Source of the DNA: Escherichia phage vB_EcoM_WFH
Sequence record: NC_048194.1
DNA: 64,000 nt
Reading direction: 5' to 3' (one strand)
A program made the translations under genes and the position numbers. The notes below the pieces were generated by a model. That model saw only the letters and a program-made list of their open reading frames with translations, was not told the DNA's origin and searched no databases. Shown here in pieces: positions 1 through 59,774 of this stretch (positions within the stretch are counted from its first letter, which is position 1; the number at the start of each line of letters is the position of its first letter).

Positions 1-135
1 ATTTTGAATTAATTTAAATTAATTTTTTTCTACATCCTCATACTTATACTAAACTTATATTTATACGTATTATCCGTAAGATATAAGTAAAAACAAAGAC
101 TTGCGGCAATACGGATGATACGTCATGATACGCTT
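1..135. repeat. AT-rich tract plus iteron-like ATCCGTA / TACGGATGATACG motifs; partial second copy of the element at 16040-16320
   Basis: Read directly: 1-60 is almost pure A/T; ATCCGTA at 72-78, TACGGATGATACG at 110-122, ATGATACG at 125-132; same 9-mer family as the 16-kb element. Confidence 0.5.
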
Positions 136-279
136 CAACCAGCCAGCAGCGGCTAAGTCATTGATTTGCATAACAAGCGGCGAAAGGGATGGATTTCTTT
201 TATGCGTATCAAACAGTACACCACGCACCACGGTCCGATATTCATTCAGCACTATGATTTATGTACTTTTACAGCCAAT

Positions 280-308
280 TTGAACATCAATCTGCACTTG
301 AATATAAT
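280..308 (+). promoter_or_regulatory. sigma70-like promoter upstream of CDS 361-834
   Basis: TTGAAC (280-285), 17-nt spacer, TATAAT (303-308). Confidence 0.4.
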
Positions 309-360
309 GTTCAATCATTGTATAATTCACACTATTAATTTGCACTATGGGATTTGCACT

Positions 361-834
361 ATGAGTCAAGATTATGTAGCAATGCCTGAAGACTTTGAAG
401 ACCCGCGATTTGCAGAGCATAATCAGGCATTATTCGATGAGTTCATTGACCTTGTTATTCAGGGCCATGACATGCGCGCAGCTTTTGCACTAGTATTTGG
501 CATGGAGGTTGCGACCGATAACTACACTGGCCAGCGAATCCTGTGCACTCAGCGCAACCCGTACTACAAGATGCGCTACAAAAAGCGCATGGAAGAAATG
601 CCATTGAAGGAATTGTGGAGCGTAAAAAGTTCCATCCACAATTTAGTGAAGCTTGTGCGTGATCCAGAAGTCGCGGCGTCAGCCAAGCTTAATGCCATTC
701 GTGAACTGAATATCATCTACGGCATCACGATGATTGATGAAAATGGCAATAGTAAAATGGGCCGTTCCATGGACGATTTCTACAAGGATTTTGGAGAGGC
801 AGCCAAAGAGGGTGAGCAATTCTCCCGCCACTAG
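361..834 (+). CDS. Hypothetical HTH-like DNA-binding protein, possibly small terminase-like
   Basis: ORF 166-834 trimmed to the ATG at 361, which sits inside an ATTTGCACTAT copy; segment FDEFIDLVIQGHDMRAAFALVFG resembles small-terminase N-terminal HTHs; function not established. Confidence 0.45.
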   Translation: MSQDYVAMPEDFEDPRFAEHNQALFDEFIDLVIQGHDMRAAFALVFGMEVATDNYTGQRILCTQRNPYYKMRYKKRMEEMPLKELWSVKSSIHNLVKLVRDPEVAASAKLNAIRELNIIYGITMIDENGNSKMGRSMDDFYKDFGEAAKEGEQFSRH

Positions 835-853
835 CCAATTTGCACTATAAAAC

Positions 854-887
854 GGCCCTAGAACACATTTTCTCCACTTCTAGGGCC
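854..887. terminator. Stem-loop GGCCCTAGAA / TTCTAGGGCC with 14-nt loop, candidate intrinsic terminator
   Basis: Perfect 10-bp inverted repeat; T-rich flank only when read on the minus strand. Confidence 0.35.
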
Positions 888-1262
888 GTTGGTAATACGA
901 CGGGGAAGGCTGCAACCATGAACGCGTTAGAAAGTGTATTATTATAAGTCATCTTTTAGTCACTTTACGTAACAATTTACGACCTTCCGCCGTCCAGTCG
1001 AACGACTCCACCAGCAGATTTGCACTATAACCTAAGACGATGCGCCCCTTCTCGTTATCGACCCGCCAACAAGTCTCGAATAGCATTCGATTTGCACTAT
1101 TAACTATCGCCGCAACGCGCGTTGGGTAAGCGCAATTTGCACTATGGTCGTAAAGGGATAAGGTGCGACCACTGCCGATGGACAACGTAGCGATGAGAAT
1201 AAGCGTATTCATAAGCCACCAATTTGCACTATGAAAAGCGACCCCGAAGGGCCGCCATTCGA

Positions 1263-1889
1263 TTAGATAATCTGGAAGGTGTAGGACTTGTTGCCGAACT
1301 CGAAGTTCAAGCGCCCAGCTTCCTTAAGCTTCATGCGGAAGCGAATATGTTTGCTATCCGGTAAGCCCAGCGCGGCGAACGCTACGCGGACCGATTTGAA
1401 CTCGCCTACACCCTCGACCATAACGGCGTTACGGGTGAGACGCTTTTGCGCCACTTCCTTGTTATCCCAACTTTTTGCAATACCTTCGCTATTAGAACGG
1501 CGATGGGAAGGAGTTCCATTTTGCACTACGCAATTTGCACTATCGTTTAGGCCGCTCTTAACGAAGGCTTCATACTCTTCGTCGGTCATCGCGTCGAGTT
1601 CTTCCTGAGTCGGCTCGGCCTTTTTAACGACCGCACGCGCCTTATGCGTTTTTACATCGCTGGACACTTCCTCGCGCGGCTTCGCGTCGGGGATGGGCAA
1701 TTCGTTGGACGGCTCATCGAGCGCGTTTAAGGACTCGATTAACGCGATGACGCGAGTCTCAGCGGTGCGACGGTCCACAAACTTCTTAATCGGTTTTGAG
1801 CCGGAGTTGGCATTATAGAATGCAACGAGGTCGGCGGTCTTAGTTGCGATAACGTCGCCGCTAGTAGAAAAGCGATTTAAGCTAACCAT
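1263..1889 (-). CDS. Hypothetical protein, first gene of the CG-rich island
   Basis: 208-aa ORF; consensus RBS AGGAG before the ATG at 1889; two ATTTGCACTAT copies lie inside it. Confidence 0.6.
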   Translation of the reverse strand: MVSLNRFSTSGDVIATKTADLVAFYNANSGSKPIKKFVDRRTAETRVIALIESLNALDEPSNELPIPDAKPREEVSSDVKTHKARAVVKKAEPTQEELDAMTDEEYEAFVKSGLNDSANCVVQNGTPSHRRSNSEGIAKSWDNKEVAQKRLTRNAVMVEGVGEFKSVRVAFAALGLPDSKHIRFRMKLKEAGRLNFEFGNKSYTFQII

Positions 1890-1969
1890 AATAAACTCCT
1901 ATTTGTTAGGGCGCTAGGCGCGAAAGAATTTTATTAAAGCGCCGCGCACGACGCTCTAAAAATCCTCTC

Positions 1970-2284
1970 TTACTCTTCGTCGTCTTCGATTAATTCGAAG
2001 GCGAAGGCATAAGCTTTGCTATCGTAATTAACTAAAACGGCGAGTTCGAACTCGTTAATAAACGCCGTTTTACCGCATAAATTTAATTCCGCATCGACTT
2101 CGAAGAATCCGTTTTCGTCGCGCTCTAAGCGAGAAGCAGCGAGTTGCTCGATTACCGTCGCGTCGTTAATTTCTTCGCCTAAGCGAACGCCGGAGAATTT
2201 CGCGAGAATTTCGCCGTAAGTAAGCGTAACACCCTGGACTTCGGCGGTTGCGTTTTCGAGGGTGAAGCGGGTAACGATAGCCAT
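1970..2284 (-). CDS. Small strongly acidic protein (paralog family member A)
   Basis: 104 aa, net charge about -15, ends ELIEDDEE; RBS AGGAG; driven by the minus-strand promoter cassette at 2353-2380. Confidence 0.65.
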   Translation of the reverse strand: MAIVTRFTLENATAEVQGVTLTYGEILAKFSGVRLGEEINDATVIEQLAASRLERDENGFFEVDAELNLCGKTAFINEFELAVLVNYDSKAYAFAFELIEDDEE

Positions 2285-2352
2285 TTTAAACTCCTAGTTG
2301 GGAGAGGCGTTAACGACCTATTCGTTAACTCATCCCGTCCCGATATGAGTAC

Positions 2353-2380
2353 ATTATAATATAGTGTAGAAAAAAGTAAA
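2353..2380 (-). promoter_or_regulatory. sigma70-type promoter cassette, copy 1 (leftward)
   Basis: On the minus strand TTTACT, 16-nt spacer containing CTACACT, TATAAT; leader hairpin GAGTTAACGAATAGGTCGTTAAC matches the leader of copy 3. Confidence 0.6.
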
Positions 2381-2424
2381 GCACTTTTTCGATAAAAATG
2401 CGATAAATTATTTTATCTTTTTTC

Positions 2425-2452
2425 TTTACTTCTTCGTACACTCGCGTATACT
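2425..2452 (+). promoter_or_regulatory. sigma70-type promoter cassette, copy 2
   Basis: TTTACT (2425-2430), 16-nt spacer TCTTCGTACACTCGCG, TATACT (2447-2452). Confidence 0.6.
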
Positions 2453-2508
2453 TGTTTATATCGAGACGGGCGATGGCCCTTTCTTCTACTAGCATCGGGA
2501 GCTTTATT

Positions 2509-2811
2509 ATGACTACTTTAATCTCTTCCATCCTTACTTACGACGAAGACCGCTTAACCGTTCGCTCTCTTATCGCCGCCGTTAACGCGGAACTAGAATC
2601 TAGCGCCATCAAGGTCCGTGCCGTTGCCTTCGTCGGCCTTTCCTTCGACGATATTAAGTATGCAGAGTATAGCGCCATTCGCGTTGTTACTACCGACGAT
2701 AACGCCGTTACCCTTATCGAGACGGTTACGCCGCGCGGCGAAGCGTTAATTATCGTCGAGTATATCGACGTAGAAGGCGATAAAGCTTATAAATATTTTA
2801 TCGCAGAATAA
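2509..2811 (+). CDS. Small acidic protein (paralog family member B)
   Basis: ORF 2452-2811 trimmed to the ATG at 2509 after GGGAG; about 100 aa, net charge about -8; C-terminal DKAYKYF resembles SKAYAFAF of member A. Confidence 0.6.
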   Translation: MTTLISSILTYDEDRLTVRSLIAAVNAELESSAIKVRAVAFVGLSFDDIKYAEYSAIRVVTTDDNAVTLIETVTPRGEALIIVEYIDVEGDKAYKYFIAE

Positions 2812-2821
2812 CGAAAAGTGC

Positions 2822-2850
2822 TTTACTTCTTCGTACACTAAGACTATAAT
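2822..2850 (+). promoter_or_regulatory. sigma70-type promoter cassette, copy 3
   Basis: TTTACT (2822-2827), 17-nt spacer TCTTCGTACACTAAGAC, TATAAT (2845-2850); followed by leader hairpin GGTAGCG-AATAGGT-CGCTACC and RBS AGGAGA. Confidence 0.65.
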
Positions 2851-2917
2851 GTTTTATATCGAGAGGGGATGAGGTAGCGAATAGGTCGCTACCCTCCCGA
2901 CTAACTAGGAGAATATT

Positions 2918-3208
2918 ATGATTACTTTAGCCGCTATCCGTTCCGCTCGCGTCGAAACTTCCGAAAACTCTAACGTATTTGGCGAAAAACTTAAAAACGT
3001 TTATCTCTTTAACGTAGATGCGACTATCGAAGAGCTTCATAGTCCTATCGATTTTAGCGAATTTACGGAACTCGAAGAGGAAGATATTACTACCTTCCGC
3101 GTTACTATCGAAGGTAAGGTTTATTTTGCTACGGAGTTCGGCGGCGAATATCTCGCGGTATCCGAAGGCGAAGGCCGTTACTCTTTCTTTAAAATCGTCT
3201 CCTTATAA
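2918..3208 (+). CDS. Small acidic protein (paralog family member C)
   Basis: 96 aa, net charge about -10 (ELEEEDITT); RBS AGGAGA. Confidence 0.65.
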   Translation: MITLAAIRSARVETSENSNVFGEKLKNVYLFNVDATIEELHSPIDFSEFTELEEEDITTFRVTIEGKVYFATEFGGEYLAVSEGEGRYSFFKIVSL

Positions 3209-3228
3209 TACCCTTCCGTTACTAATAG

Positions 3229-3254
3229 GCCGCGCTTAGTCGCGGCTTTTCTTC
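3229..3254 (+). terminator. Rho-independent terminator
   Basis: GCCGCG-CTTAGT-CGCGGC followed by TTTTCTTCG, immediately after the CDS ending at 3208. Confidence 0.6.
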
Positions 3255-3372
3255 GTCCCTATCTCGATGCGCTTCTCCGCGAAAACTCCTTTATCCTTCC
3301 CTTCGTCGTCGCATAATCTTCGTCGAGATGCGCCTTAGTTCGCATAACAGGTATTACGTTAAATGGAGAACA

Positions 3373-3448
3373 TCGCGTAAGTCCTTGTTTTATATAGACA
3401 CCTATATCGGACCGTTAGGGAGGGTCGCGCAAGTCGTTGTTTTATAAA
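3373..3448 (+). repeat. Imperfect 24-bp direct repeat pair in a non-coding region
   Basis: TCGCGTAAGTCCTTGTTTTATATA (3373-3396) and TCGCGCAAGTCGTTGTTTTATAAA (3425-3448). Confidence 0.55.
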
Positions 3449-3571
3449 GGCGCAAAACTTTCCCTTCGTTCCGAACTAAAACGAGAAATATGCCGACCCT
3501 TCGCCCGAAAATAGTACGCATGCGAAATTACATGTATCTAGAATAATCCCCACCGATATTATCCTACACGC

Positions 3572-3629
3572 AATCATTAGCTTTCGAATCATTATGCTTC
3601 ATACTATTATGCGTCGAATCATTCGCTTT
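3572..3629 (+). repeat. Three direct copies of a 14-mer, GAATCATT(A/C)NGCTT
   Basis: Copies at about 3572, 3586 and 3616. Confidence 0.55.
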
Positions 3630-3723
3630 CTAATTGTAACGCTGGAAACTGTAACGGCGATTGATTATTGCGTTCGTGTGGTTTTTAGGGCATGGGTCTT
3701 TTGGTGCGTTTTGGTACTTGATG

Positions 3724-8047: not shown

Positions 8048-8389
8048 TTAATTTCTTTTGAGAGGAATATGACGGTTGCTGTCATTATTTGGTTTAATAA
8101 TGAGCATAAAAACGATTAGAAAGATGATGGCTGATATACTTAATTCAATCAGCGCGGCCTGAGATATGGATTGATCTTCATGATACTGCTTTTGCATTTC
8201 TGCTTTCTTCTGAGCGCAAACTTCAGGCGATATATAATCACCTTTTGAGTTGCCATAATAAATCTCGCCATTTTCAGAAATAAGTCTGCCGCAAATATCC
8301 GTATCGGCCTTTGCACTCGACATCATAATAACGGTGCCGATGATAGCAGCAATTGTCCAGATTAGCAGTTGTGATAAAGTATTGTTCAT
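8048..8389 (-). CDS. Small membrane protein with two predicted transmembrane segments
   Basis: ORF trimmed to MNNTL after RBS AAGAGG; hydrophobic N- and C-terminal stretches. Confidence 0.5.
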   Translation of the reverse strand: MNNTLSQLLIWTIAAIIGTVIMMSSAKADTDICGRLISENGEIYYGNSKGDYISPEVCAQKKAEMQKQYHEDQSISQAALIELSISAIIFLIVFMLIIKPNNDSNRHIPLKRN

Positions 8390-9422: not shown

Positions 9423-10883
9423 ATGAATAAAATATTAACACATAATTGGAAAGTCATGTACCAGTTGAATCCTGCTTTAAGAGAAGTCTGGAAGACGAAA
9501 GCGCGATACAAAGTCATATACGGCGGTCGTGCATCTTCCAAATCGCACGATGCCGCTGGTTTTGCTATTTATTTGGCGGCAAACTTCAAATTAAAATTCC
9601 TTTGCGTTCGACAATTCCAGAACAAGATTTCTGAATCAGTATATACGCTATTAAAAGATAAAATAGAGATTTCTGATTTTAAAGACGAGTTCAACTTATT
9701 AAAAAACTCTATTGAACACAAAAGAACAAAATCTGAATTTTTATTTTACGGTATCGCACGCAACGTTGACGAAATCAAATCAACAGAAGGTGTTGATGTT
9801 CTTTGGCTTGAAGAAGCGCATGCACTGACTGAAGAGCAATGGGACATTATTGAGCCGACAATTCGTAAGGAAGGGTCCGAAATATGGATCATATTTAACC
9901 CTGATGAAGAGGCTGATTTCGTCTACCAGAACTTTGTTATGCGACCGCCGAAAAATGCCATCGTTAAGAAGATTAACTGGCAGGACAATCCATTCTTGTC
10001 GCAAACAATGCTGGATGTTATCGCTGGCATGTATGAGCGCGACCCGAAAAAGGCAGAACACGTTTATGGCGGAGTGCCGAAGACAGGTGGCGATAAGTCG
10101 GTCATCAACCGTGCATTCGTCAAAGCCGCGCTAAACCTCCACAAACACCCTACGCTGGGATGGAGCTTGTCAGGGTCTAACCGTATAGGCTTCGACGTGG
10201 CGGACGACGGCGACGACTTAAACGCCACAGCGTTTGTCACAGGCAACGTATTACGTGGCATCAAGACATGGGAAGGTCTGGAAGATGAATTGCTTAAGTC
10301 CGCAAGCGGAGTCTGGAAAGACGCATTGACATTCGGCGCATCAATCACCTATGACGCCATCGGTGTTGGTGCATTTGCTGGTTCAAAATTTGATGAGCTT
10401 AATGAGTATGCAATCCATGAAAATCCAACATTCCCAAGAATCGAATTTAATGCGTTCAACGCGCAAGGTGCTGTTGATGATCCTGATGACGTCTTCCTTG
10501 AGTTACCACACGTTGAAATACTCAATAAAGACCATTTCGCAAACATAAAAGCGCAAAAATGGACTGAGATTGCCGAACGATTCAGAAAGACATATGAGTA
10601 TGCGACAGGGCAAGCCGTATATCCGACCGATGAGTTGATTTCCATCGACACAGACGGCATCCCAGAACTTGGTATTCCCGCTTGGTCTGCGGAAGAAATT
10701 GAGACGTTTCTTTTTGAGATGTCAGCACCGCGCAAAGACACGTCTGTACTTGGCAAGTTCAAAGTTGAATCGAAAAAGGATATGGCAAAGCGTGGAGTCA
10801 AATCGCCTAACAAAGCGGACGCAGCAATCATGGCATTGATGAAACCAATTGTTGCAGCATCCGGCTTCTTCTCTAACCTTTAA
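9423..10883 (+). CDS. terL: Terminase large subunit
   Basis: Walker A GGRASSKSH near the N-terminus, Walker B-like VLWLEEAH, nuclease-type C-terminal half; 486 aa; portal follows. Confidence 0.9.
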   Translation: MNKILTHNWKVMYQLNPALREVWKTKARYKVIYGGRASSKSHDAAGFAIYLAANFKLKFLCVRQFQNKISESVYTLLKDKIEISDFKDEFNLLKNSIEHKRTKSEFLFYGIARNVDEIKSTEGVDVLWLEEAHALTEEQWDIIEPTIRKEGSEIWIIFNPDEEADFVYQNFVMRPPKNAIVKKINWQDNPFLSQTMLDVIAGMYERDPKKAEHVYGGVPKTGGDKSVINRAFVKAALNLHKHPTLGWSLSGSNRIGFDVADDGDDLNATAFVTGNVLRGIKTWEGLEDELLKSASGVWKDALTFGASITYDAIGVGAFAGSKFDELNEYAIHENPTFPRIEFNAFNAQGAVDDPDDVFLELPHVEILNKDHFANIKAQKWTEIAERFRKTYEYATGQAVYPTDELISIDTDGIPELGIPAWSAEEIETFLFEMSAPRKDTSVLGKFKVESKKDMAKRGVKSPNKADAAIMALMKPIVAASGFFSNL

Positions 10884-14937: not shown

Positions 14938-15858
14938 ATGACGATACCAATCAGCACGTTTCCTCTATCTGGACAAACGCCAGTATTGCCTGCTGTATAT
15001 GCTAACGGTTTGGCGATTGTTTCGGAATTCACATCCGATAAAAACCTGATTGTTCCATTGAGTCCGCCATTGGCGTCTGGATACAATTCAGTTGGCCAGT
15101 TCTTTATGATCGGTAATGATGGCGATTCTACCAGCAAGCCGAATCTGACACTTTCAGTTCCCAAAATGAACATAACAGACGTGCAGACTGGTTTAACTGC
15201 ATCTACGATCACCATCGCTTTTGGAGAAGCAGTGATTATAGGCATGGAGTCTGGAGGGTCCAATAATGCTGTCGCCGTTAAGGTAGTCAAATCCAGCAGC
15301 AACCAATACACACTACCAGCGGCAACGGCTTCTATTCTCGGCGGCGTCAAAATAGGAAGTGGCATAAGCGTTGCAGGTGACGGTACAATTAGTGTGACTC
15401 AATACTCATTACCGATTGCATCAGCATCAACCTTGGGTGGCATAAAGGTAGGAACGACACTATCAATTGATGGTTCTGGCGTCCTTAATGCTGCTGCAAG
15501 TACTGTGCAGAACGCAAGCAACAGCGTAAGCAATCCTCCGACAACTCTGGTGAATCTGGCAACCTTAAACCTGCCTGCAGGGAAATGGCTTGTGACAGCA
15601 AGTCAGTTGACTGTCGCGACAGCAGGAGTTCAAGCGAATACCGGAATTACAGTCAAACTGTCAACAAGTAATTCAGATATTACGGATGATGCATTTACAA
15701 TGTCAGCTGGAATTCGGGCTGCAGGTCGTTTCGGCGGCAATATTCCAACAAAGATAATTACCCTTGCCGCGCCTGGCAACGTGTATCTAAACTATCAATG
15801 CACAGACGCATTGACATCTACCGTTTACGGACAGATCACCGCAATTAAGTTGAACTAA
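14938..15858 (+). CDS. Fibre-repeat protein inside the head module (candidate head fibre or decoration)
   Basis: Two copies of a fibre-like repeat (YTLPAATASILGGVKIGSGISVAGDGTISV and YSLPIASASTLGGIKVGTTLSIDGSGVLN); ORF trimmed to the ATG after GAGGT. Confidence 0.5.
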   Translation: MTIPISTFPLSGQTPVLPAVYANGLAIVSEFTSDKNLIVPLSPPLASGYNSVGQFFMIGNDGDSTSKPNLTLSVPKMNITDVQTGLTASTITIAFGEAVIIGMESGGSNNAVAVKVVKSSSNQYTLPAATASILGGVKIGSGISVAGDGTISVTQYSLPIASASTLGGIKVGTTLSIDGSGVLNAAASTVQNASNSVSNPPTTLVNLATLNLPAGKWLVTASQLTVATAGVQANTGITVKLSTSNSDITDDAFTMSAGIRAAGRFGGNIPTKIITLAAPGNVYLNYQCTDALTSTVYGQITAIKLN

Positions 15859-15868
15859 AGAGGAAGTT

Positions 15869-16006
15869 ATGCAAAAGATTATTCAGTCACGTTACGTTAA
15901 AGTGCGAAATATTAATTGCAACTCTTTGCTTTCTTGGAAATGGGCTGTTTACGACTCGATGCTGATTGGCGTTTTAGTTGCTGGAGTGCTTTTTAATATT
16001 CACTGA
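15869..16006 (+). CDS. Small membrane protein (45 aa), not in the supplied ORF track
   Basis: Strong RBS AAGAGGAAG 6 nt before the ATG; hydrophobic AVYDSMLIGVLVAGVLF. Confidence 0.4.
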   Translation: MQKIIQSRYVKVRNINCNSLLSWKWAVYDSMLIGVLVAGVLFNIH

Positions 16007-16039
16007 ATCGCCTGGCAATGGATTGCCGCAGGATTTTAC

Positions 16040-16320
16040 GCGTATAATGACGTATCATCCGTATCAAGTAAGTAGTTGTTTTCAAAAGAATCTTACGGAT
16101 GATACGGATGATACGCGTTGCCGCGATACTTTATAGGAATTCAAATAAATTAATTTAAAATTATATATCTAATTTAATTTTATTTTTTTATAAACTCTTA
16201 TATATGAAAAGTATCCGTATCATCCGTATCATCCGTAGCACACCAGTGATAGCGCGGCTTATACACCGATACGGATAAAAATACGCCTCATTTTATCCGT
16301 ATCATCCGTATCACACTAAT
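16040..16320. repeat. Origin-like element: inverted arrays of the 9-mer ATCCGTATC flanking a 70-bp AT-rich core
   Basis: CGTATCATCCGTATCA (16051-16066), inverted TACGGATGATACGGATGATACG (16094-16115), AT tract 16141-16210, GTATCCGTATCATCCGTATCATCCGTAGC (16211-16239), CGATACGGATA (16268-16278), TTATCCGTATCATCCGTATCAC (16293-16314). Confidence 0.65.
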
Positions 16321-16370
16321 TAAGGCGCGACTATATCGGTTGTTATACATATTCAAACCATAATTATTGT

Positions 16371-16399
16371 TTGCCTAAGTTTTTTTCATTAGATATAAT
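16371..16399 (+). promoter_or_regulatory. sigma70-like promoter for the head-gene operon
   Basis: TTGCCT, 17-nt spacer, TATAAT, about 30 nt upstream of the ATG at 16429. Confidence 0.5.
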
Positions 16400-16428
16400 A
16401 CACAATACTTATTTGAGGGTGGATGCGA

Positions 16429-17841
16429 ATGCAAACGGCACGCGAAATTGACAAAAATGGATTCTTGACGATTGTGGGTTGTCCCATTTCGTCATTTGGC
16501 ATTTTTGATTATTCTGCAGGTCAGGTTGGACTTGATGGTGATCCGAATCGCATCGTAAAAGTTTATCGCCCAGAGTCAGCGGTGAAAGACCCCGAAGCGA
16601 TAGATTCATTCAAAAATATCCCTTTCATCGACAATCACGAAATGCTTTCTGGATTCGAAGGTGATGAGGATAACACAGCACCCGAAGAGTATGGCGTTGA
16701 TGGCGTTCTAACTGGCAATGTTTATTATGACAAGCCATGGATGCGCGGCGACCTTAAAGTTTTTAGCCGTCGTCTGAAGAAGGCCATCGATTCTGGAAAG
16801 GTTGACTTGTCTTTGGGCTATGACTGTGAATTCATCATACAGTCTGGAGAGTTTGACGGGCAGCCGTATGAAGTGGTACAGACAACTCTTCGCGGCAACC
16901 ACATTGCTCTCGTGGACGTTGGTCGAGTACCAGGTGCACGGGTGCTGGATGGTCGTTGCTTTGACCATCTTTGTTTGACGACTGTAACACCATCCAACGA
17001 GGATTTAGACATGCCAAAACCGTTAAAAGGTAAAGCGCGTGATAATGCTGTTGAACAGCTGAAATCACTGATCCCTGCGCTCGAACAATTTCTGAATGAA
17101 GAGAGCACCGAAGCTGCTCATCAGGACGAAGTTGAAGTGAAAGCAGAAGAGAAGGATTCAACCGAAGAACGTGAAGAAGTGATGGTTGATCCAGAAGTCA
17201 AAGCAGAAGCTGAAGAGACTCCAGAAGGTGAAGAGAAGTTTGAAGTTGAAACTGAATCTCACGCTGGCGGCGAGCTTCCGCAACTGATCAGCCAAATCGA
17301 AGCACTTATTGCAAAACTGAAAGGTGGCGCGGTAGGTGATGAAGAAGAAGTTGAAGCCGAAGTCAAAGACGAAGAAGTTGAAGTCAAGGCTGAAGATGTA
17401 TCACCTTGCGACAAAGCTGAAGATGTGGTTAGCGGCCTGCAAAACAGCAACGTAAAGGGGGCTTCGGTCGAAAAAGATGACAAACCGACAAAAGCGGCGA
17501 AAGCGTCGCCAGGTCCAGCAAAAGGGGAACACTCAATGGCATCTGATTCAGCAGTTGCTGCTTTCTACGCTGATTCTGCTCGTAAGAATAGCCTCTACCA
17601 GCGCCTGTCTAAAGTTGTTGGTGCCTTTGATCATGCAACTATGGACTCCAAGTCCGTAGCGAAATATGGCGCTAAAAAGTTAGGCTTGAAGTGCGTTGAT
17701 GGTGCTGAGTTTGACGTGGTGGATAATTATCTGCGCGGCGTTGAACACGGTCAAAAACAGCGTGTAGTCGCAAAACAAAAGGCCGCTGCGGATTCTGCAG
17801 CAACTGACGAAGCATTTGAAGCTTGGTTGAAAGGGGAATAA
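16429..17841 (+). CDS. Prohead protease / scaffolding-like protein
   Basis: Conserved-looking N-terminal domain (RGNHIALVDVGR), then a long acidic Glu/Lys/Ala-rich coiled coil typical of scaffolds; directly upstream of the capsid genes. Confidence 0.55.
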   Translation: MQTAREIDKNGFLTIVGCPISSFGIFDYSAGQVGLDGDPNRIVKVYRPESAVKDPEAIDSFKNIPFIDNHEMLSGFEGDEDNTAPEEYGVDGVLTGNVYYDKPWMRGDLKVFSRRLKKAIDSGKVDLSLGYDCEFIIQSGEFDGQPYEVVQTTLRGNHIALVDVGRVPGARVLDGRCFDHLCLTTVTPSNEDLDMPKPLKGKARDNAVEQLKSLIPALEQFLNEESTEAAHQDEVEVKAEEKDSTEEREEVMVDPEVKAEAEETPEGEEKFEVETESHAGGELPQLISQIEALIAKLKGGAVGDEEEVEAEVKDEEVEVKAEDVSPCDKAEDVVSGLQNSNVKGASVEKDDKPTKAAKASPGPAKGEHSMASDSAVAAFYADSARKNSLYQRLSKVVGAFDHATMDSKSVAKYGAKKLGLKCVDGAEFDVVDNYLRGVEHGQKQRVVAKQKAAADSAATDEAFEAWLKGE

Positions 17842-55226: not shown

Positions 55227-55552
55227 TATAACTCCACTACGCTTTCAAGGTCCAGATATACTGGAATAAAATGGCAATCTTCTTTTCGTTCAAACATCTC
55301 ACCGTCAACGTGACTGAAGAAAACAGTCGTGTTTGGTATCTTCCACCCTTTCTCGTCGCGCACCAGGTACGCCATGGATTCAACAGGGATGTAAAGCGAT
55401 ACCGGATTTGCGGCAAAGATGAATTTGATTCTGTCTGGTTGACCCAGGAATCGCATAATTGTAAGACTTGAATTCAGTCTTGTATTAAGAAAGGACTCAA
55501 CGATTCCGACGTGTGTCGCACGTTCGCGTTGCTTCGTATCTTTTTCGTTCAT
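55226..55552 (-). CDS. Hypothetical protein
   Basis: 108-aa ORF, stop/start overlap with the helicase. Confidence 0.45.
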   Translation of the reverse strand: MNEKDTKQRERATHVGIVESFLNTRLNSSLTIMRFLGQPDRIKFIFAANPVSLYIPVESMAYLVRDEKGWKIPNTTVFFSHVDGEMFERKEDCHFIPVYLDLESVVEL

Positions 55553-55655
55553 TTCAGGCGACCTTTGTTAGTGCGGAAATATTTTCTGATAGTATAATTG
55601 CAGATATAGTATAAAGCAAAGTAAATCGAAATTGTGAACTAAATGGTAAATATTG

Positions 55656-55683
55656 TTGACTTTGTATCACTCAATATTATACT
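55656..55683 (+). promoter_or_regulatory. sigma70-like promoter for the primase operon
   Basis: TTGACT, 16-nt spacer, TATACT, about 30 nt upstream of RBS AAGGAAAG. Confidence 0.55.
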
Positions 55684-55712
55684 GCAGGTATTGATCACCG
55701 AAGGAAAGAAAG

Positions 55713-56795
55713 ATGGCTAGTTTAAGAGAAGAAGCAAAAATAATCGAAGAGTTTTTGACGGAACTCCAAAGAGGCATTCCAGAAGATGAACGCGTCATGA
55801 CCGTGTTTGCTCCTGAAGCAACAGTGCAGACTGACGAGCGCGGCAAAAAGATTAACAGCAGCTTCTGGCCTAAGCCTTGGAAGCTTGGCAAGCCGCTGAT
55901 GCAACATCAGAACGGTTACGCCTGCATAAGTTCAATGCGTAAGTCTCCCAACCCAAAGACAGGCGAGATGCGATACTGGCGCACGGAATCGGCTTTCGGT
56001 CATGGCATGGCGATGATGGTCGACGACATCGGACACGGTAAAGGGTCCAAAGGCGATTTGGATTTGGAGTTCTTTTTCGAGCGCCTAAAACCAACCGTCA
56101 TTGTCGAGACTTCGCCGAACAACCACCAGCTGTGGTACTTCTTTAAAGACCCGATTGACCATCTTATCCAGTTCAAGGCATTTCTTGGGTCTTTCGTAAA
56201 CATGGTACTCAAGAAGGGCGGCGACAACACGATTAAAGATGTGACGCGCGTTGGCCGTGTTCCTGGGTGTATCAACAACAAACGTGTGACTCACGACGGA
56301 CCTTACAAATATGTCGATGAGAACGGCGACCCGTTCCGCTGCCGACTTGTTCATGCAGACTACTCTTTGCGCTACACAATCGAAGAGATTTGCCAAGCCT
56401 TCGGTTTCCACGTCGTTATGCCGCAAAAGCGTGAAATTCAAATCGACGTTGACGAATACAAATATGACGCTGTTTGGTATAAGATAGCCCAGCAAATCCT
56501 TGCGCGCAATAAGATGGGCGAAGGGTCCGATGGCGATGTGGTTGAAAACATGTCAGGTAAATGCCGCATCATCTGTCCTTGGGGTGAAGAGCACACCAAC
56601 GGCGACCCATACGGCGCTTATTTTCGCGGCCCAATCCCTGGCGCTGAACATGAATTCGTTTTCGGTTGCGCTCACGACTGCCACCGGAAAGGGGAAGGCA
56701 AGAAAGGATGGACCGCTTTTGTTGAAGCAGTAGTTATGCCTTATATTGAGAATCAACTTGATATGATAAATCGTCGCGCAGGTGGCATAAAATAG
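55713..56795 (+). CDS. DNA primase, RepB-prime / primase-polymerase-like, with C-terminal zinc-binding region
   Basis: MMVDDIGHGKG, ETSPNNHQLWYFF, RVGRVPGCINNK; C-terminal CRIICPWGEEH ... FGCAHDCH. Confidence 0.6.
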   Translation: MASLREEAKIIEEFLTELQRGIPEDERVMTVFAPEATVQTDERGKKINSSFWPKPWKLGKPLMQHQNGYACISSMRKSPNPKTGEMRYWRTESAFGHGMAMMVDDIGHGKGSKGDLDLEFFFERLKPTVIVETSPNNHQLWYFFKDPIDHLIQFKAFLGSFVNMVLKKGGDNTIKDVTRVGRVPGCINNKRVTHDGPYKYVDENGDPFRCRLVHADYSLRYTIEEICQAFGFHVVMPQKREIQIDVDEYKYDAVWYKIAQQILARNKMGEGSDGDVVENMSGKCRIICPWGEEHTNGDPYGAYFRGPIPGAEHEFVFGCAHDCHRKGEGKKGWTAFVEAVVMPYIENQLDMINRRAGGIK

Positions 56796-58103: not shown

Positions 58104-59774
58104 ATGTCAATTGAACATGACAATCTTCCAGAGGATACAGGTGATGAATTTGGTGCAATCTTTGACGAAATTCAAGACGCTGGTGTTTCAGAAGAAATGC
58201 AAGCGGCAGAGCAGCAAGGCACCAGAGCTAAAATCAGCCTACAGCACAAGGCTGTTGAGAAAGATGCAGAGCGCATGGAATGCTACGGTGAAGAAGACTT
58301 GGTTGAAAGAGCACGTTTGCTCGCCTCACTTCAGGTAATCAAGTTCCCTCATTATAAACCGACGAAAGATGATTTTGTTCTTCAGGCGGACCGGACGAGT
58401 GACATGAACCGTTATGCGGTTTTCGACGCGTTGTTTGATAAGGGAAGCGGCATCGTCCCATTCCCTCACAAAGATACTTTTCGTGGACGCTTAGTCGACC
58501 ATCGCGGCGAAACATTCACCGACCGGACGTTGGAAGTCACAGAGATAGTTGCCGCTGTCGATGCAGCAGGCCTGTCCAACCCAAACTCACGTCAGGTCGC
58601 TCAATCCTATAAGGAATGGGCCATGCGTTATCAGCGCGACGACCTGATGGACTTCTTCTACAAGAAGCTTCCTGAATGGGACGGTACTGCGCGCATTGAG
58701 AAATACCTTATCGAGCTATTCCGACCGTTCGATACAGAGTTAAACCGACAAATCGGTGTGTATTTTTGGCTATCGCTCTATAACCGCCTGACCAACCCTG
58801 GCTGTCAAGCGCCAATCTCCATCGCGCTCATCGGCGGCCAGAACGCAGGGAAGAGTTATTTTAGTAAGCTGCTTTGCGAAGCTATTATGAACGACCGCCA
58901 CGCAACACCGATTCCGTTGAACTTGGCCGCGCAGAACTTCAACCCGTTCTTGCGAGCTATTACGGGTCGCTCAATTATCGCGAACGTTGGCGAGATGACG
59001 GGCTTTAAAAAGGCCGACATCGAAAACATGAAGGCATTCCTGACTAAGACGGAAGATGACCTGGACTTCAAATTTGAAGACACGCAGGTCAAACCACGCC
59101 AGTGGATTGCTATCATGGACGGCAACGAATACGCAGGCATGCAGCGTGACGATACGGGCAACCGTCGTGTGTATCCTATCTTTGTTGGCCAACTCGCCGA
59201 CAAGGACGGGCAACCGAACTGGTCAAAAGACTTCCAAGCTGACCTTTCCACTTTGAAAGAAGACGTTTGGCAACTGATGGCTGAGTGTGCTGCGTGGATG
59301 GAGAAGCACGGCGAAGCAGGTTACAACGCGTTTGTCGGTGAAACGTCTCGCATGCTTACTGAGTTCAGTAAGAACGAAATGGAACGCGCTCGCGGCGTTA
59401 TCCGTGATGAGATGGTCGACAACGACCTTGTTGAAGTCGTCATTACCGCGCCTTATGACCGACATCACAGCGGACGCTGGCACATCACCAGTGGTGCAAT
59501 CGCTATGGGATTCAGAGCTAAGTGCGGCAAGTCGCCTTTCTCACGTACCCTTGCGCCGCACATGTCGAAGCTTGGATTTGAGCCTGCAACCTATCGCAAC
59601 CAGCGCGGCTACTTTACGCCGCTGATTAAGAATGAAGCAGGGGAATACATTTCTGACTTGATGACTATCTTAGCGTATCTTATTCGCGACGAGTCTGACC
59701 CTGAAGATATTGAATTCTTGAAGAAGGTTATTGAACGCAAACGTTCTTTAGGAAGAGATAAGGATGAATTCTGA
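58104..59774 (+). CDS. VirE / D5-like P-loop NTPase (putative replicative helicase or primase partner)
   Basis: Walker A IGGQNAGKS; strong RBS CAGGAGGA. Confidence 0.5.
   Translation: MSIEHDNLPEDTGDEFGAIFDEIQDAGVSEEMQAAEQQGTRAKISLQHKAVEKDAERMECYGEEDLVERARLLASLQVIKFPHYKPTKDDFVLQADRTSDMNRYAVFDALFDKGSGIVPFPHKDTFRGRLVDHRGETFTDRTLEVTEIVAAVDAAGLSNPNSRQVAQSYKEWAMRYQRDDLMDFFYKKLPEWDGTARIEKYLIELFRPFDTELNRQIGVYFWLSLYNRLTNPGCQAPISIALIGGQNAGKSYFSKLLCEAIMNDRHATPIPLNLAAQNFNPFLRAITGRSIIANVGEMTGFKKADIENMKAFLTKTEDDLDFKFEDTQVKPRQWIAIMDGNEYAGMQRDDTGNRRVYPIFVGQLADKDGQPNWSKDFQADLSTLKEDVWQLMAECAAWMEKHGEAGYNAFVGETSRMLTEFSKNEMERARGVIRDEMVDNDLVEVVITAPYDRHHSGRWHITSGAIAMGFRAKCGKSPFSRTLAPHMSKLGFEPATYRNQRGYFTPLIKNEAGEYISDLMTILAYLIRDESDPEDIEFLKKVIERKRSLGRDKDEF

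Follow-up and report, generated by a model that had tools for sequence, protein, structure and literature searches.

Twin iteron modules in Escherichia phage vB_EcoM_WFH and its relatives are candidate Rep-type origins, one of which holds the packaging cut

A 64,000-nucleotide stretch of the genome of Escherichia phage vB_EcoM_WFH (record NC_048194.1; this whole stretch is called the window below) contains two paralogous modules in which short repeats (iterons) are arranged on both sides of an A+T-rich core. Copy A lies at the left end of the window, upstream of the small terminase gene terS, and copy B is found upstream of the gene for the prohead protease. Taken together with their counterparts in related phages, they suggest that the modules are twin Rep-type origins, one of which (copy A) doubles as pac, a reading to which we assign a probability of about 0.5. 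The coordinates of the features are collected in Table 1.

Among the phages employed in therapy against Pseudomonas, Pbunaviruses belong to those used most often; Wifceviruses, which grow unusually fast, are candidates for use against O157. In the literature that we read on this family, genome ends are called "contradictory", no DNA binding is reported for the small terminase that has been solved, and origins have been placed by GC skew only. The present analysis pins the packaging cut to one base in a defined, conserved module, indicates that headful-type and exact-terminal-repeat members use a common site, and identifies an unreported twin of this site in front of the capsid operon; by analogy, both modules may be linked to a SaPI-Rep-type initiator. 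It also yields concrete DNA substrates for the biochemistry of terminase and Rep, a design rule for synthetic rebooting and engineering (both gaps should be left unsplit and undeleted), and a system for studying the coupling of replication to packaging and the making of long terminal repeats. The parts appear, by analogy, to be of known kinds: an iteron origin as used by SaPI Rep proteins, and a pac site built like those of P1 and SPP1. In the literature that we searched, there was no description of the iterons, of a twin module before the capsid operon or of the polar motif presented below, nor of a packaging cut in an origin-like core or of a site common to headful-type and terminal-repeat-type relatives.

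Table 1. Positions of the modules, their parts and the associated genes in the window
Feature	Position	Strand	Remarks
Copy A, right half	1..210		core remainder 1-60; iterons 65-80, 108-132, 202-210; GCGGCAA at 103
Direct terminal repeat	1..3701		3,701 bp; right boundary GGGCATGGGTCTTT/TGGTGCG
Sigma-70 promoters, near-consensus, two in tandem before terS	280..326	+	
Small terminase TerS	361..834	+	homolog of the E217 TerS decamer (PDB 7UXE), 9e-33; directly downstream of copy A
Copy B, whole iteron / A+T-core module	16023..16313		follows a 45-aa ORF (15869-16006), precedes the gene for the prohead protease (16423-17841)
Left outer iterons	16041..16066	+	three units, 10- and 9-bp spacing: gCGTATAa, aCGTATCa, cCGTATCa
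Left inner iteron arm TACGGATGATACGGATGATACG	16094..16115	-	perfect 22-nt inverted repeat of 16216-16237
Left polar motif TTGCCGCG	16118..16125	+	further TTGCCGC at 16023-16029
A+T core, candidate DNA-unwinding region	16131..16211		91% A+T, 81 bp
Right inner iteron arm	16213..16240	+	three tandem 9-bp units
Right polar motif GCGGC	16254..16258	+	complement orientation of left motif
Right outer iterons	16267..16313		one - unit (16268-16276), two + units (16295-16312)
CGTATCA units, copy B	+ 16041, 16051, 16060; - 16094 (half), 16100, 16109; + 16216, 16225, 16234; - 16267; + 16298, 16307
Sigma-70 promoter, near-consensus, TTGCCT-17-TATAAT	16371..16399	+	serves the protease-scaffold-capsid operon
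RepB-type primase	55713..56795	+	PF16793, 4e-36; upstream of helicase (pri-rep gene order)
SaPI-Rep-type (VapE-like, SF3) self-loading helicase	58104..59774	+	556 aa; C-terminal winged helix; candidate iteron-binding initiator

Copy B contains the 9-mer ATCCGTATC, which occurs seven times exactly in 16057-16312 and once more with one mismatch; a single exact copy, at 8297, is present in the rest of the 64 kb. With at most one mismatch, the window contains 19 matches, as compared with 9.8 ± 3.0 in shuffled sequences, none of 100 shuffles reaching 19. Counted by the core CGTATCA (≤1 mismatch), the repeat forms 11 units and a half unit in copy B, in keeping with the about ten copies in both orientations described in an earlier note on this DNA; five to six units lie to the left of the A+T core and six to its right. 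The two inner arms are 100 nt apart and inverted about the core, and the right outer part holds a 13-nt inverted repeat (16268-16280 / 16291-16303). The core, which had been described as almost pure A/T, is indeed the A+T-richest 80-nt stretch of the whole window, the second richest (position 7; 82.5%) being located inside copy A. The non-coding gap around copy B measures 416 bp (16007-16422), and not 565 bp as first given, because relatives annotate the 45-aa ORF that borders it. A promoter scan revealed no promoter of note in the copy B core, and an Rfam scan of 15800-16500 returned sub-threshold hairpin-like matches only and no known RNA.

The window is 93-99.6% identical to the Wifcevirus E. 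coli myophages WFH, FEC19, ECML-117, WFC, Mansfield and Bas98-101. Among 12 Wifcevirus genomes, 375 of the 421 columns of the copy B gap were invariant, and pairwise diversity amounted to 0.025 in copy B, 0.19 in the first 33 nt of the gap, 0.084 in the upstream gene and 0.015 in the protease gene. Judging from these sequences, copy B is under purifying selection. Exactly one whole 9-nt unit is deleted from its left inner arm in Bas101, indicating that the repeats behave as modules.

We considered the possibility that copy B is a selfish or neutral repeat without function, either an inserted element of the MITE type or a second copy of the terminus region that is decaying. The inverted arms about an A+T core, the size of about 300 bp and the presence of two copies would suit such an element, and a 47-nt block that is near-identical in copies A and B suggests gene conversion between them. 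Yet, within the genus, the conservation of copy B equals that of the protease gene next to it. Copy B is also found at the same place in the gene order of at least three genera and several metagenomic clades, where its sequence has been wholly replaced and its architecture kept. Furthermore, the 22-nt arm was found in IMG/VR in Wifcevirus contigs only, and there are no target-site duplications. A functionless repeat is in our view barely credible, and a mobile MITE-like element was rejected on account of the synteny, the turnover of sequence with kept architecture and the restriction of the arm to Wifcevirus contigs in IMG/VR.

At the window start, the earlier note had recognized the same motif family and an AT tract at 1-135. 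Both are present there, as iteron units and as the A+T-rich spot at position 7, but the copy is not partial, as had been thought: it is complete in the genome, its left half lying outside the window, where the unique sequence ends, as seen in circularly permuted records. The database records place the physical left end of the virion DNA at window base 1, inside the copy A core. Upstream of base 1, the 47-nt block (ATCTTACGGATGATACGGATGATACGCGTyGCCGCkATACTTTATA) is near-identical to 16089-16135 and is followed by the A+T core; copies A and B are collinear over about 300 bp, and in their alignment the copy B core is matched by the part of copy A in which the physical terminus falls. The terminus junction, …AATTAACTCC/ATTTTGAATT…, lies inside the copy A core and does not vary among 12 genomes. 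Three versions of the left arm of copy A, unrelated in sequence, were seen, and GATACG/CGTATCA units are kept in all of them.

Terminal repeats of about 3.7 kb have been reported for WFC and WFH (Korf 2019, PMC6563267), and positions 1-3673 are annotated as a PhageTerm-predicted direct terminal repeat in the record of Mansfield (D'Souza 2019, PMC6753283). Mansfield and a WFH-like record of 71,283 bp agree to the base on the right repeat boundary (3701), at which neither iterons nor an A+T core were found. The earlier note had pointed out that the element might be the assembly join of a terminal repeat. For copy A, such an artefact was rejected because five independent records, including the one analysed with PhageTerm, open exactly at window base 1, the repeat boundary, and agree with PhageTerm on a physical end. 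For copy B, it was rejected because this module is internal and present in 27 of 27 related records.

An end at the same place is indicated by data on Pbunavirus. In JG024, 36 of 161 long reads start at 59,376 ± 5, a sub-molar restriction fragment agrees with this position and a pac site was proposed (Ipoutcha 2024, PMC10913387). In the copy A core of JG024, position 59,376 falls on the base that separates the two blocks with iterons. The record of Pa193 opens at the equivalent base, and those of BrSP1, PaP1_EPu-2019, Ab27 and vB3530 begin no more than 2 nt away, at least five Pbunavirus records starting on this core base. The PhageTerm terminus of Serratia phage MTx is likewise inside the core of its copy A. 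In about 130 of 298 Pbunavirus records, homology breaks off some 20 nt left of the cut, as is also the case in Wifcevirus, which indicates that the cut coincides with a recombination boundary. Since the fixed DNA end of Pbunavirus (JG024 59,376; Ab27) falls exactly at the copy A core, we conclude from the records and, for the Pbunavirus orthologs, from the published read data that copy A is the pac or left-terminus site. One and the same module core provides the series-initiation end in a headful-type genus and, in terminal-repeat genera, the exact left end. A cut inside an origin core is without a well-studied precedent, which counts against twin origins. The earlier note had proposed an iteron-type origin or packaging site: packaging and terminus formation hold for copy A, which carries the DNA end, and an origin is, by analogy, best supported for copy B, whose architecture resembles that of SaPI-Rep origins in a phage that encodes the corresponding helicase.

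The pair of modules is also present in MTx, in Pbunavirus and in metagenomic relatives, with one module upstream of terS and the other upstream of the protease gene; there are two per genome, 16-20 kb apart, with A+T cores of about 80-100 bp. The location inside the morphogenesis genes, deemed unusual in the earlier note, is conserved across several genera. In MTx (Myosmarvirus), the protease is 54% identical, synteny is alike, terS is at the left end and PhageTerm gives a repeat of 3,566 bp; one of its paralogous modules extends across the left terminus and the other is situated in a 357-bp gap before the protease gene, the repeat being CGAAAAG/CTTTTCG. In Pbunavirus Pa193, two blocks that are 78-80% identical flank a core, and the Pbunavirus repeat is GTAATTTGG, in tandem at 9 bp. 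The layout of the iterons around the A/T centre in MTx and Pa193 is like that of copy B. Metagenomic relatives with 47-51% protease identity show a like design with other repeats (TATCCGAT x7, TCCGCAAC x7, CAAGATCGC x6 and AACTTACC x4); in the smaller contigs of relatives at about 40% protease identity, the design was absent.

De novo k-mer enrichment showed that the repeat is confined to the two modules. ATCCGTA/CGTATCA occurs 14 times in copies A and B, as compared with 6 times in the other 63 kb, and the corresponding figures were 5 versus 0 in 23 kb and 7 versus 0 in 26 kb. The two gaps shared 43-76 8-mers, versus 15-32 in controls, in all eight genomes with both loci, and local alignments between them were significant. 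Such lineage-specific iterons would be the pattern expected, at the level of sequence, from co-evolution with a specificity domain.

A polar motif is common to the modules: each GCCGC lies to the left of the core and each GCGGC to its right (15 and 16 occurrences, without exception, in six modules from three genera), and in several lineages the motif grows to TTGCCGC / GCGGCAA. Since these 5-mers occur throughout the genome at about 2 per kb, it is their polarity that is informative, not their count. The modules accordingly contain two repeat classes, either of which may belong to either protein (Rep or terminase), and this counts against twin origins.

The position of the DNA end raised the alternative that both modules are TerS recognition sites, similar to pac of P1 or to pacL-pacC-pacR of SPP1, at which rings on both sides would present the core to TerL, copy A being cut and copy B being bound and left uncut or only rarely cut. 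Copy B might then be a secondary loading or synapsis site, or a brake or sensor tying the expression of the head genes to the level of terminase. In P1 and SPP1, short repeats lie on both sides of the central zone of the series-initiating cut, beside or in the small-terminase gene, and copy A, with its repeats around a cut zone next to terS, follows this design. The physical end is within the copy A core in three genera. In every lineage examined, Wifcevirus with its distant rep included, copy A precedes terS by 360-620 nt, whereas copy B is not beside terS; the adjacency of copy A to terS everywhere fits a TerS-binding site equally well, a point against twin origins. The N-terminal region of TerS is divergent enough for lineage-specific recognition, and the record of Pbunavirus E215 opens inside the copy B core, though this is a hint only, the E215 paper describing no end mapping. 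Against TerS sites, no end at copy B was reported in the PhageTerm or long-read studies, and a second direct pac would lead to abortive 55-kb packaging in the exact-DTR genera, where copy B is nevertheless conserved. Unlike the present phages, P1 and SPP1 have a single pac, with no paralog elsewhere, and the end in Wifcevirus and MTx is the exact end of a direct terminal repeat of 3.6-3.7 kb, not that of a headful series. Finally, E217 TerS is reported to show no appreciable DNA binding in vitro (review PMC9611059). We hold recognition of both modules by TerS to be possible, though rather unlikely.

Some traits are found in copy A alone, namely longer GCCGC/GCGGC arrays and an upstream G+T-rich tract (0.64-0.80, as compared with a background of 0.50 ± 0.035), to which a C+A-rich tract downstream is added in MTx and Pa193. 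Copy B has no extended GCCGC/GCGGC arrays and no G+T- or C+A-rich tract. The local G+T skew at copy A runs opposite to the imprint of bidirectional replication from there, which is an observation against twin origins; presumably, it reflects protection of the end. Chi sites were considered as the cause of the G+T tracts and set aside as suggestive only, there being a single exact, correctly oriented Chi, 1 kb inside the left end.

The window encodes a plausible reader of the iterons other than TerS, the putative Rep-type helicase. This protein contains a VapE-like domain (PF05272, 1.6e-28) and matches SaPI1 Rep1 (7PDS) in phmmer (4e-11). An AlphaFold model built from a 45-sequence alignment (pLDDT 87.6) predicts a winged helix, a1-b1-a2-a3-b2-b3, for residues 436-504 (pLDDT 85-94 there). 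With Foldseek, its best matches were chains A-F of 7PDS, over about 480 columns (TM 0.60; E 3e-17, as compared with 2.6e-8 for the next family). Conservation among 44 homologs was 56% in the core and 18-23% in the C-terminal 115 residues, the least conserved part of the protein. From the model, the C-terminal winged helix is a candidate iteron-specificity domain.

In Rep origins, 6-12 iterons follow directly on rep and surround an A/T-rich centre, each side having two or more of them, in opposite directions; they are bound by the C-terminal winged helix, and hexamers self-load on either side (Qiao 2022, PMC9371898). Copy B fits this layout (6-12 iterons, two opposed sets, A/T centre), with a unit of 7-9 nt instead of 5-6 nt. 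Copy A comes straight after rep in Pbunavirus, in Myosmarvirus and in two of the metagenomic clades. In Wifcevirus, rep is 8 kb from copy A, and copy B was beside rep in no lineage examined; both facts stand against twin origins.

Other readers were considered. A general promoter factor is unlikely, since there are only two clusters per genome. For the host protein DnaA (boxes TTATCCACA), TTATCCGTA matches at 7 of 9 positions, yet the motif is unrelated in the Serratia and Pseudomonas relatives; DnaA was excluded because the motif differs between phages whose hosts share one DnaA box.

If the traits common to copies A and B serve a common role, and those of copy A alone serve end formation, the most economical view would be that both modules are Rep-type origins and that copy A is also the terminase site. 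The Rep-type helicase would read the iterons through its divergent C-terminal winged helix, and its hexamers would load themselves on both sides of the core and melt it, after which the RepB-type primase would prime synthesis. The terminase would make the initiating cut in the copy A core, at window base 1, and the GCCGC/GCGGC arrays, the G+T tract and the adjacency of terS would probably contribute to end formation. Twin origins would explain why copy B, which shows no ends, is nonetheless strongly conserved, also in exact-repeat phages, in which packaging would abort after a second cut; why the iterons turn over by lineage, in parallel with the winged helix of Rep; and why the cores are the most meltable DNA of the genome. 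Copy B is kept in headful-type as well as in exact-DTR-type members, in the latter of which a second cut site would be harmful.

More speculatively, an origin at the left repeat boundary could supply the local synthesis that duplicates the terminal repeat in concatemers. A stricter version, in which origin and packaging site are physically fused, is distinctly doubtful: the terminase would cut the core melted by Rep, in the terminal-repeat genera the origin would fire at concatemer junctions, thereby doubling the 3.7-kb repeat, the uncut twin would front the capsid operon, and the 9-mers would be read by the winged helix of Rep and GCGGCAA by the terminase. In the Banzai paper, Pbunavirus origins were put in the region of the replication genes by GC skew; we discarded this way of mapping origins, as skew tracks the direction of transcription and is uninformative.

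We also considered the possibility that the modules are devices of transcriptional control, a phage protein on the iterons activating or repressing the sigma-70 promoters 60-150 nt downstream, which serve the terS operon and the protease-scaffold-capsid operon. Near-consensus promoters on the + strand indeed follow both copies, both downstream operons are morphogenetic, and the records of LMA2 and LBL3 annotate predicted sigma-70 promoters in the copy B gap of Pbunavirus. The promoter next to copy B lies 3' of the module, outside the repeat architecture, and is invariant in 12 genomes. However, there are only two sites per genome despite several late operons, and the iterons are located about 95-370 nt upstream of the -35 element, around an 80-bp core without a strong promoter. 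Moreover, transcriptional control would leave the virion end in the core and the polar GCCGC/GCGGC arrays unexplained, and we consider it very improbable.

The proposed twin Rep-type origins resemble the Rep/PriRep origins of SaPIs in several respects. The phage protein is an SF3 helicase-initiator with a C-terminal winged helix, whose best structural match, over its full length, is SaPI1 Rep1; the iterons are short and form two opposed sets around an A/T-rich centre; the origin is directly downstream of rep (copy A, in most lineages) and the primase gene is upstream of rep. They differ in that the phage iterons are 7-9 nt long and partly in tandem at a 9-bp period, as compared with 5-6 nt in SaPIs, a difference that counts against twin origins. 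In addition, the phage has two modules 16-20 kb apart and the clade-wide polar TTGCCGC / GCGGCAA, one of its modules holds the terminase cut, its primase is of the RepB (IncQ) type, and it is a virulent myophage, not a satellite.

In phage P4, the primase-helicase initiator reportedly uses a winged-helix domain to read one short iteron at ori and crr, which are several kb apart, and this is a precedent for a single initiator reading two distant cis sites. Unlike the phage modules, which are full paralogs, each with an A+T core, crr differs structurally from ori, and a single origin requires the two sites together. In T7, repeat arrays are said to lie by the terminal repeat, and the origin to be linked to concatemer processing and packaging. 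The phage modules share with T7 the short repeat arrays adjoining a terminal-repeat boundary and a presumed functional link between origin and packaging, whereas there is no kinship in sequence or protein, T7 relying on promoters of its own RNA polymerase and having a repeat of 160 bp. As for oriV of IncQ (RSF1010), at which a RepB'-type primase works on paired ssi hairpins that lie on opposite strands next to iterons and an A/T tract, no initiator of the RepC type was found in the phage; a protein with a RepB_primase domain is present, and symmetric hairpin-capable sequences and the polar GCCGC face the core on opposite strands.

Copy A, the iteron and A+T-core module upstream of terS, holds the packaging cut in its core. 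Its left arm, immediately left of the cut and beyond the window, consists of hypervariable DNA (relatives' segments L002 1270-1500 and L004 4280-4583; Pbunavirus, L035 420-655). Three mutually unrelated versions of this arm exist in Wifcevirus, and homology is lost ~20 nt before the cut in about 130 of the 298 Pbunavirus records. Right of the cut, the DNA is conserved throughout. The pac cut thus falls on a recombination or mosaic boundary.

Upstream of copy A, G+T-rich tracts (0.64-0.80 on the cut-ward strand) were found in three genera (L004 4020-4320, L031 1690-1880 and L034 990-1230), and C+A-rich tracts lie downstream of it in the Serratia phage MTx and in the Pbunavirus Pa193. The right boundary of the terminal repeat (window 3660-3720) is also G+T-rich. 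Copy B, the internal module preceding the prohead protease gene, is devoid of both G+T-rich and C+A-rich tracts. These tracts could act in the manner of Chi, load RecA or protect DNA ends. The window contains four Chi sites, versus 1.2 expected, and the exact one near the left end has the orientation that RecBCD would read on coming in from there. The genes terS and terL are separated by 8.6 kb, including opposite-strand genes and a tail-fibre gene, a split that is also kept in MTx and Pbunavirus.

Coordinates of features in the window
Feature	Window position	Strand	Remark
terS	361-834		inside terminal repeat
Exact E. coli Chi, GCTGGTGG	1008-1015	-	1 kb inside left end
terL	9423-10883		
Divergent intergenic region	55552-55713		between leftward replication-gene block and rightward primase/early block

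The record of the Pbunavirus E215 (NC_042080.1) was opened inside the copy-B core, its start corresponding to position 183 of the Pa193 gap (L033 4265). Of 297 records, no other is linearized within this core, and the E215 paper gives no terminus mapping. Such a start may have arisen by chance, from a break in the assembly, or may be a sign of DNA ends at copy B.

Among Wifcevirus relatives, Bas101 is short of precisely one 9-nt iteron unit in its left inner arm, at the place matching window 16090-16098, and one unit of Mansfield carries a G-to-T change (L001 16120). The iterons therefore vary unit by unit, as expected for modular binding sites. In Pbunavirus, the core is flanked on each side by a 24-nt hairpin-capable palindrome, AAAGCCTACTGCCGCGAGGCTTT (L036 386-409 in phage goonie; L033 4160-4185 and 4375-4400), the two being mutual reverse complements. 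Some records annotate them merely as 'repeat_region'; they may serve as recognition sites for a primase or be recognized structure-specifically.

The divergent intergenic region, where an origin would conventionally be guessed, is among the more A+T-rich spots of the window (77.5% at 55578) and contains no iterons. The record PQ604604.1 (ECP_WGS_SA1, labelled 'UNVERIFIED') starts as the window does and is 99.6% identical to it; this phage may be WFH itself or a very close re-isolate.
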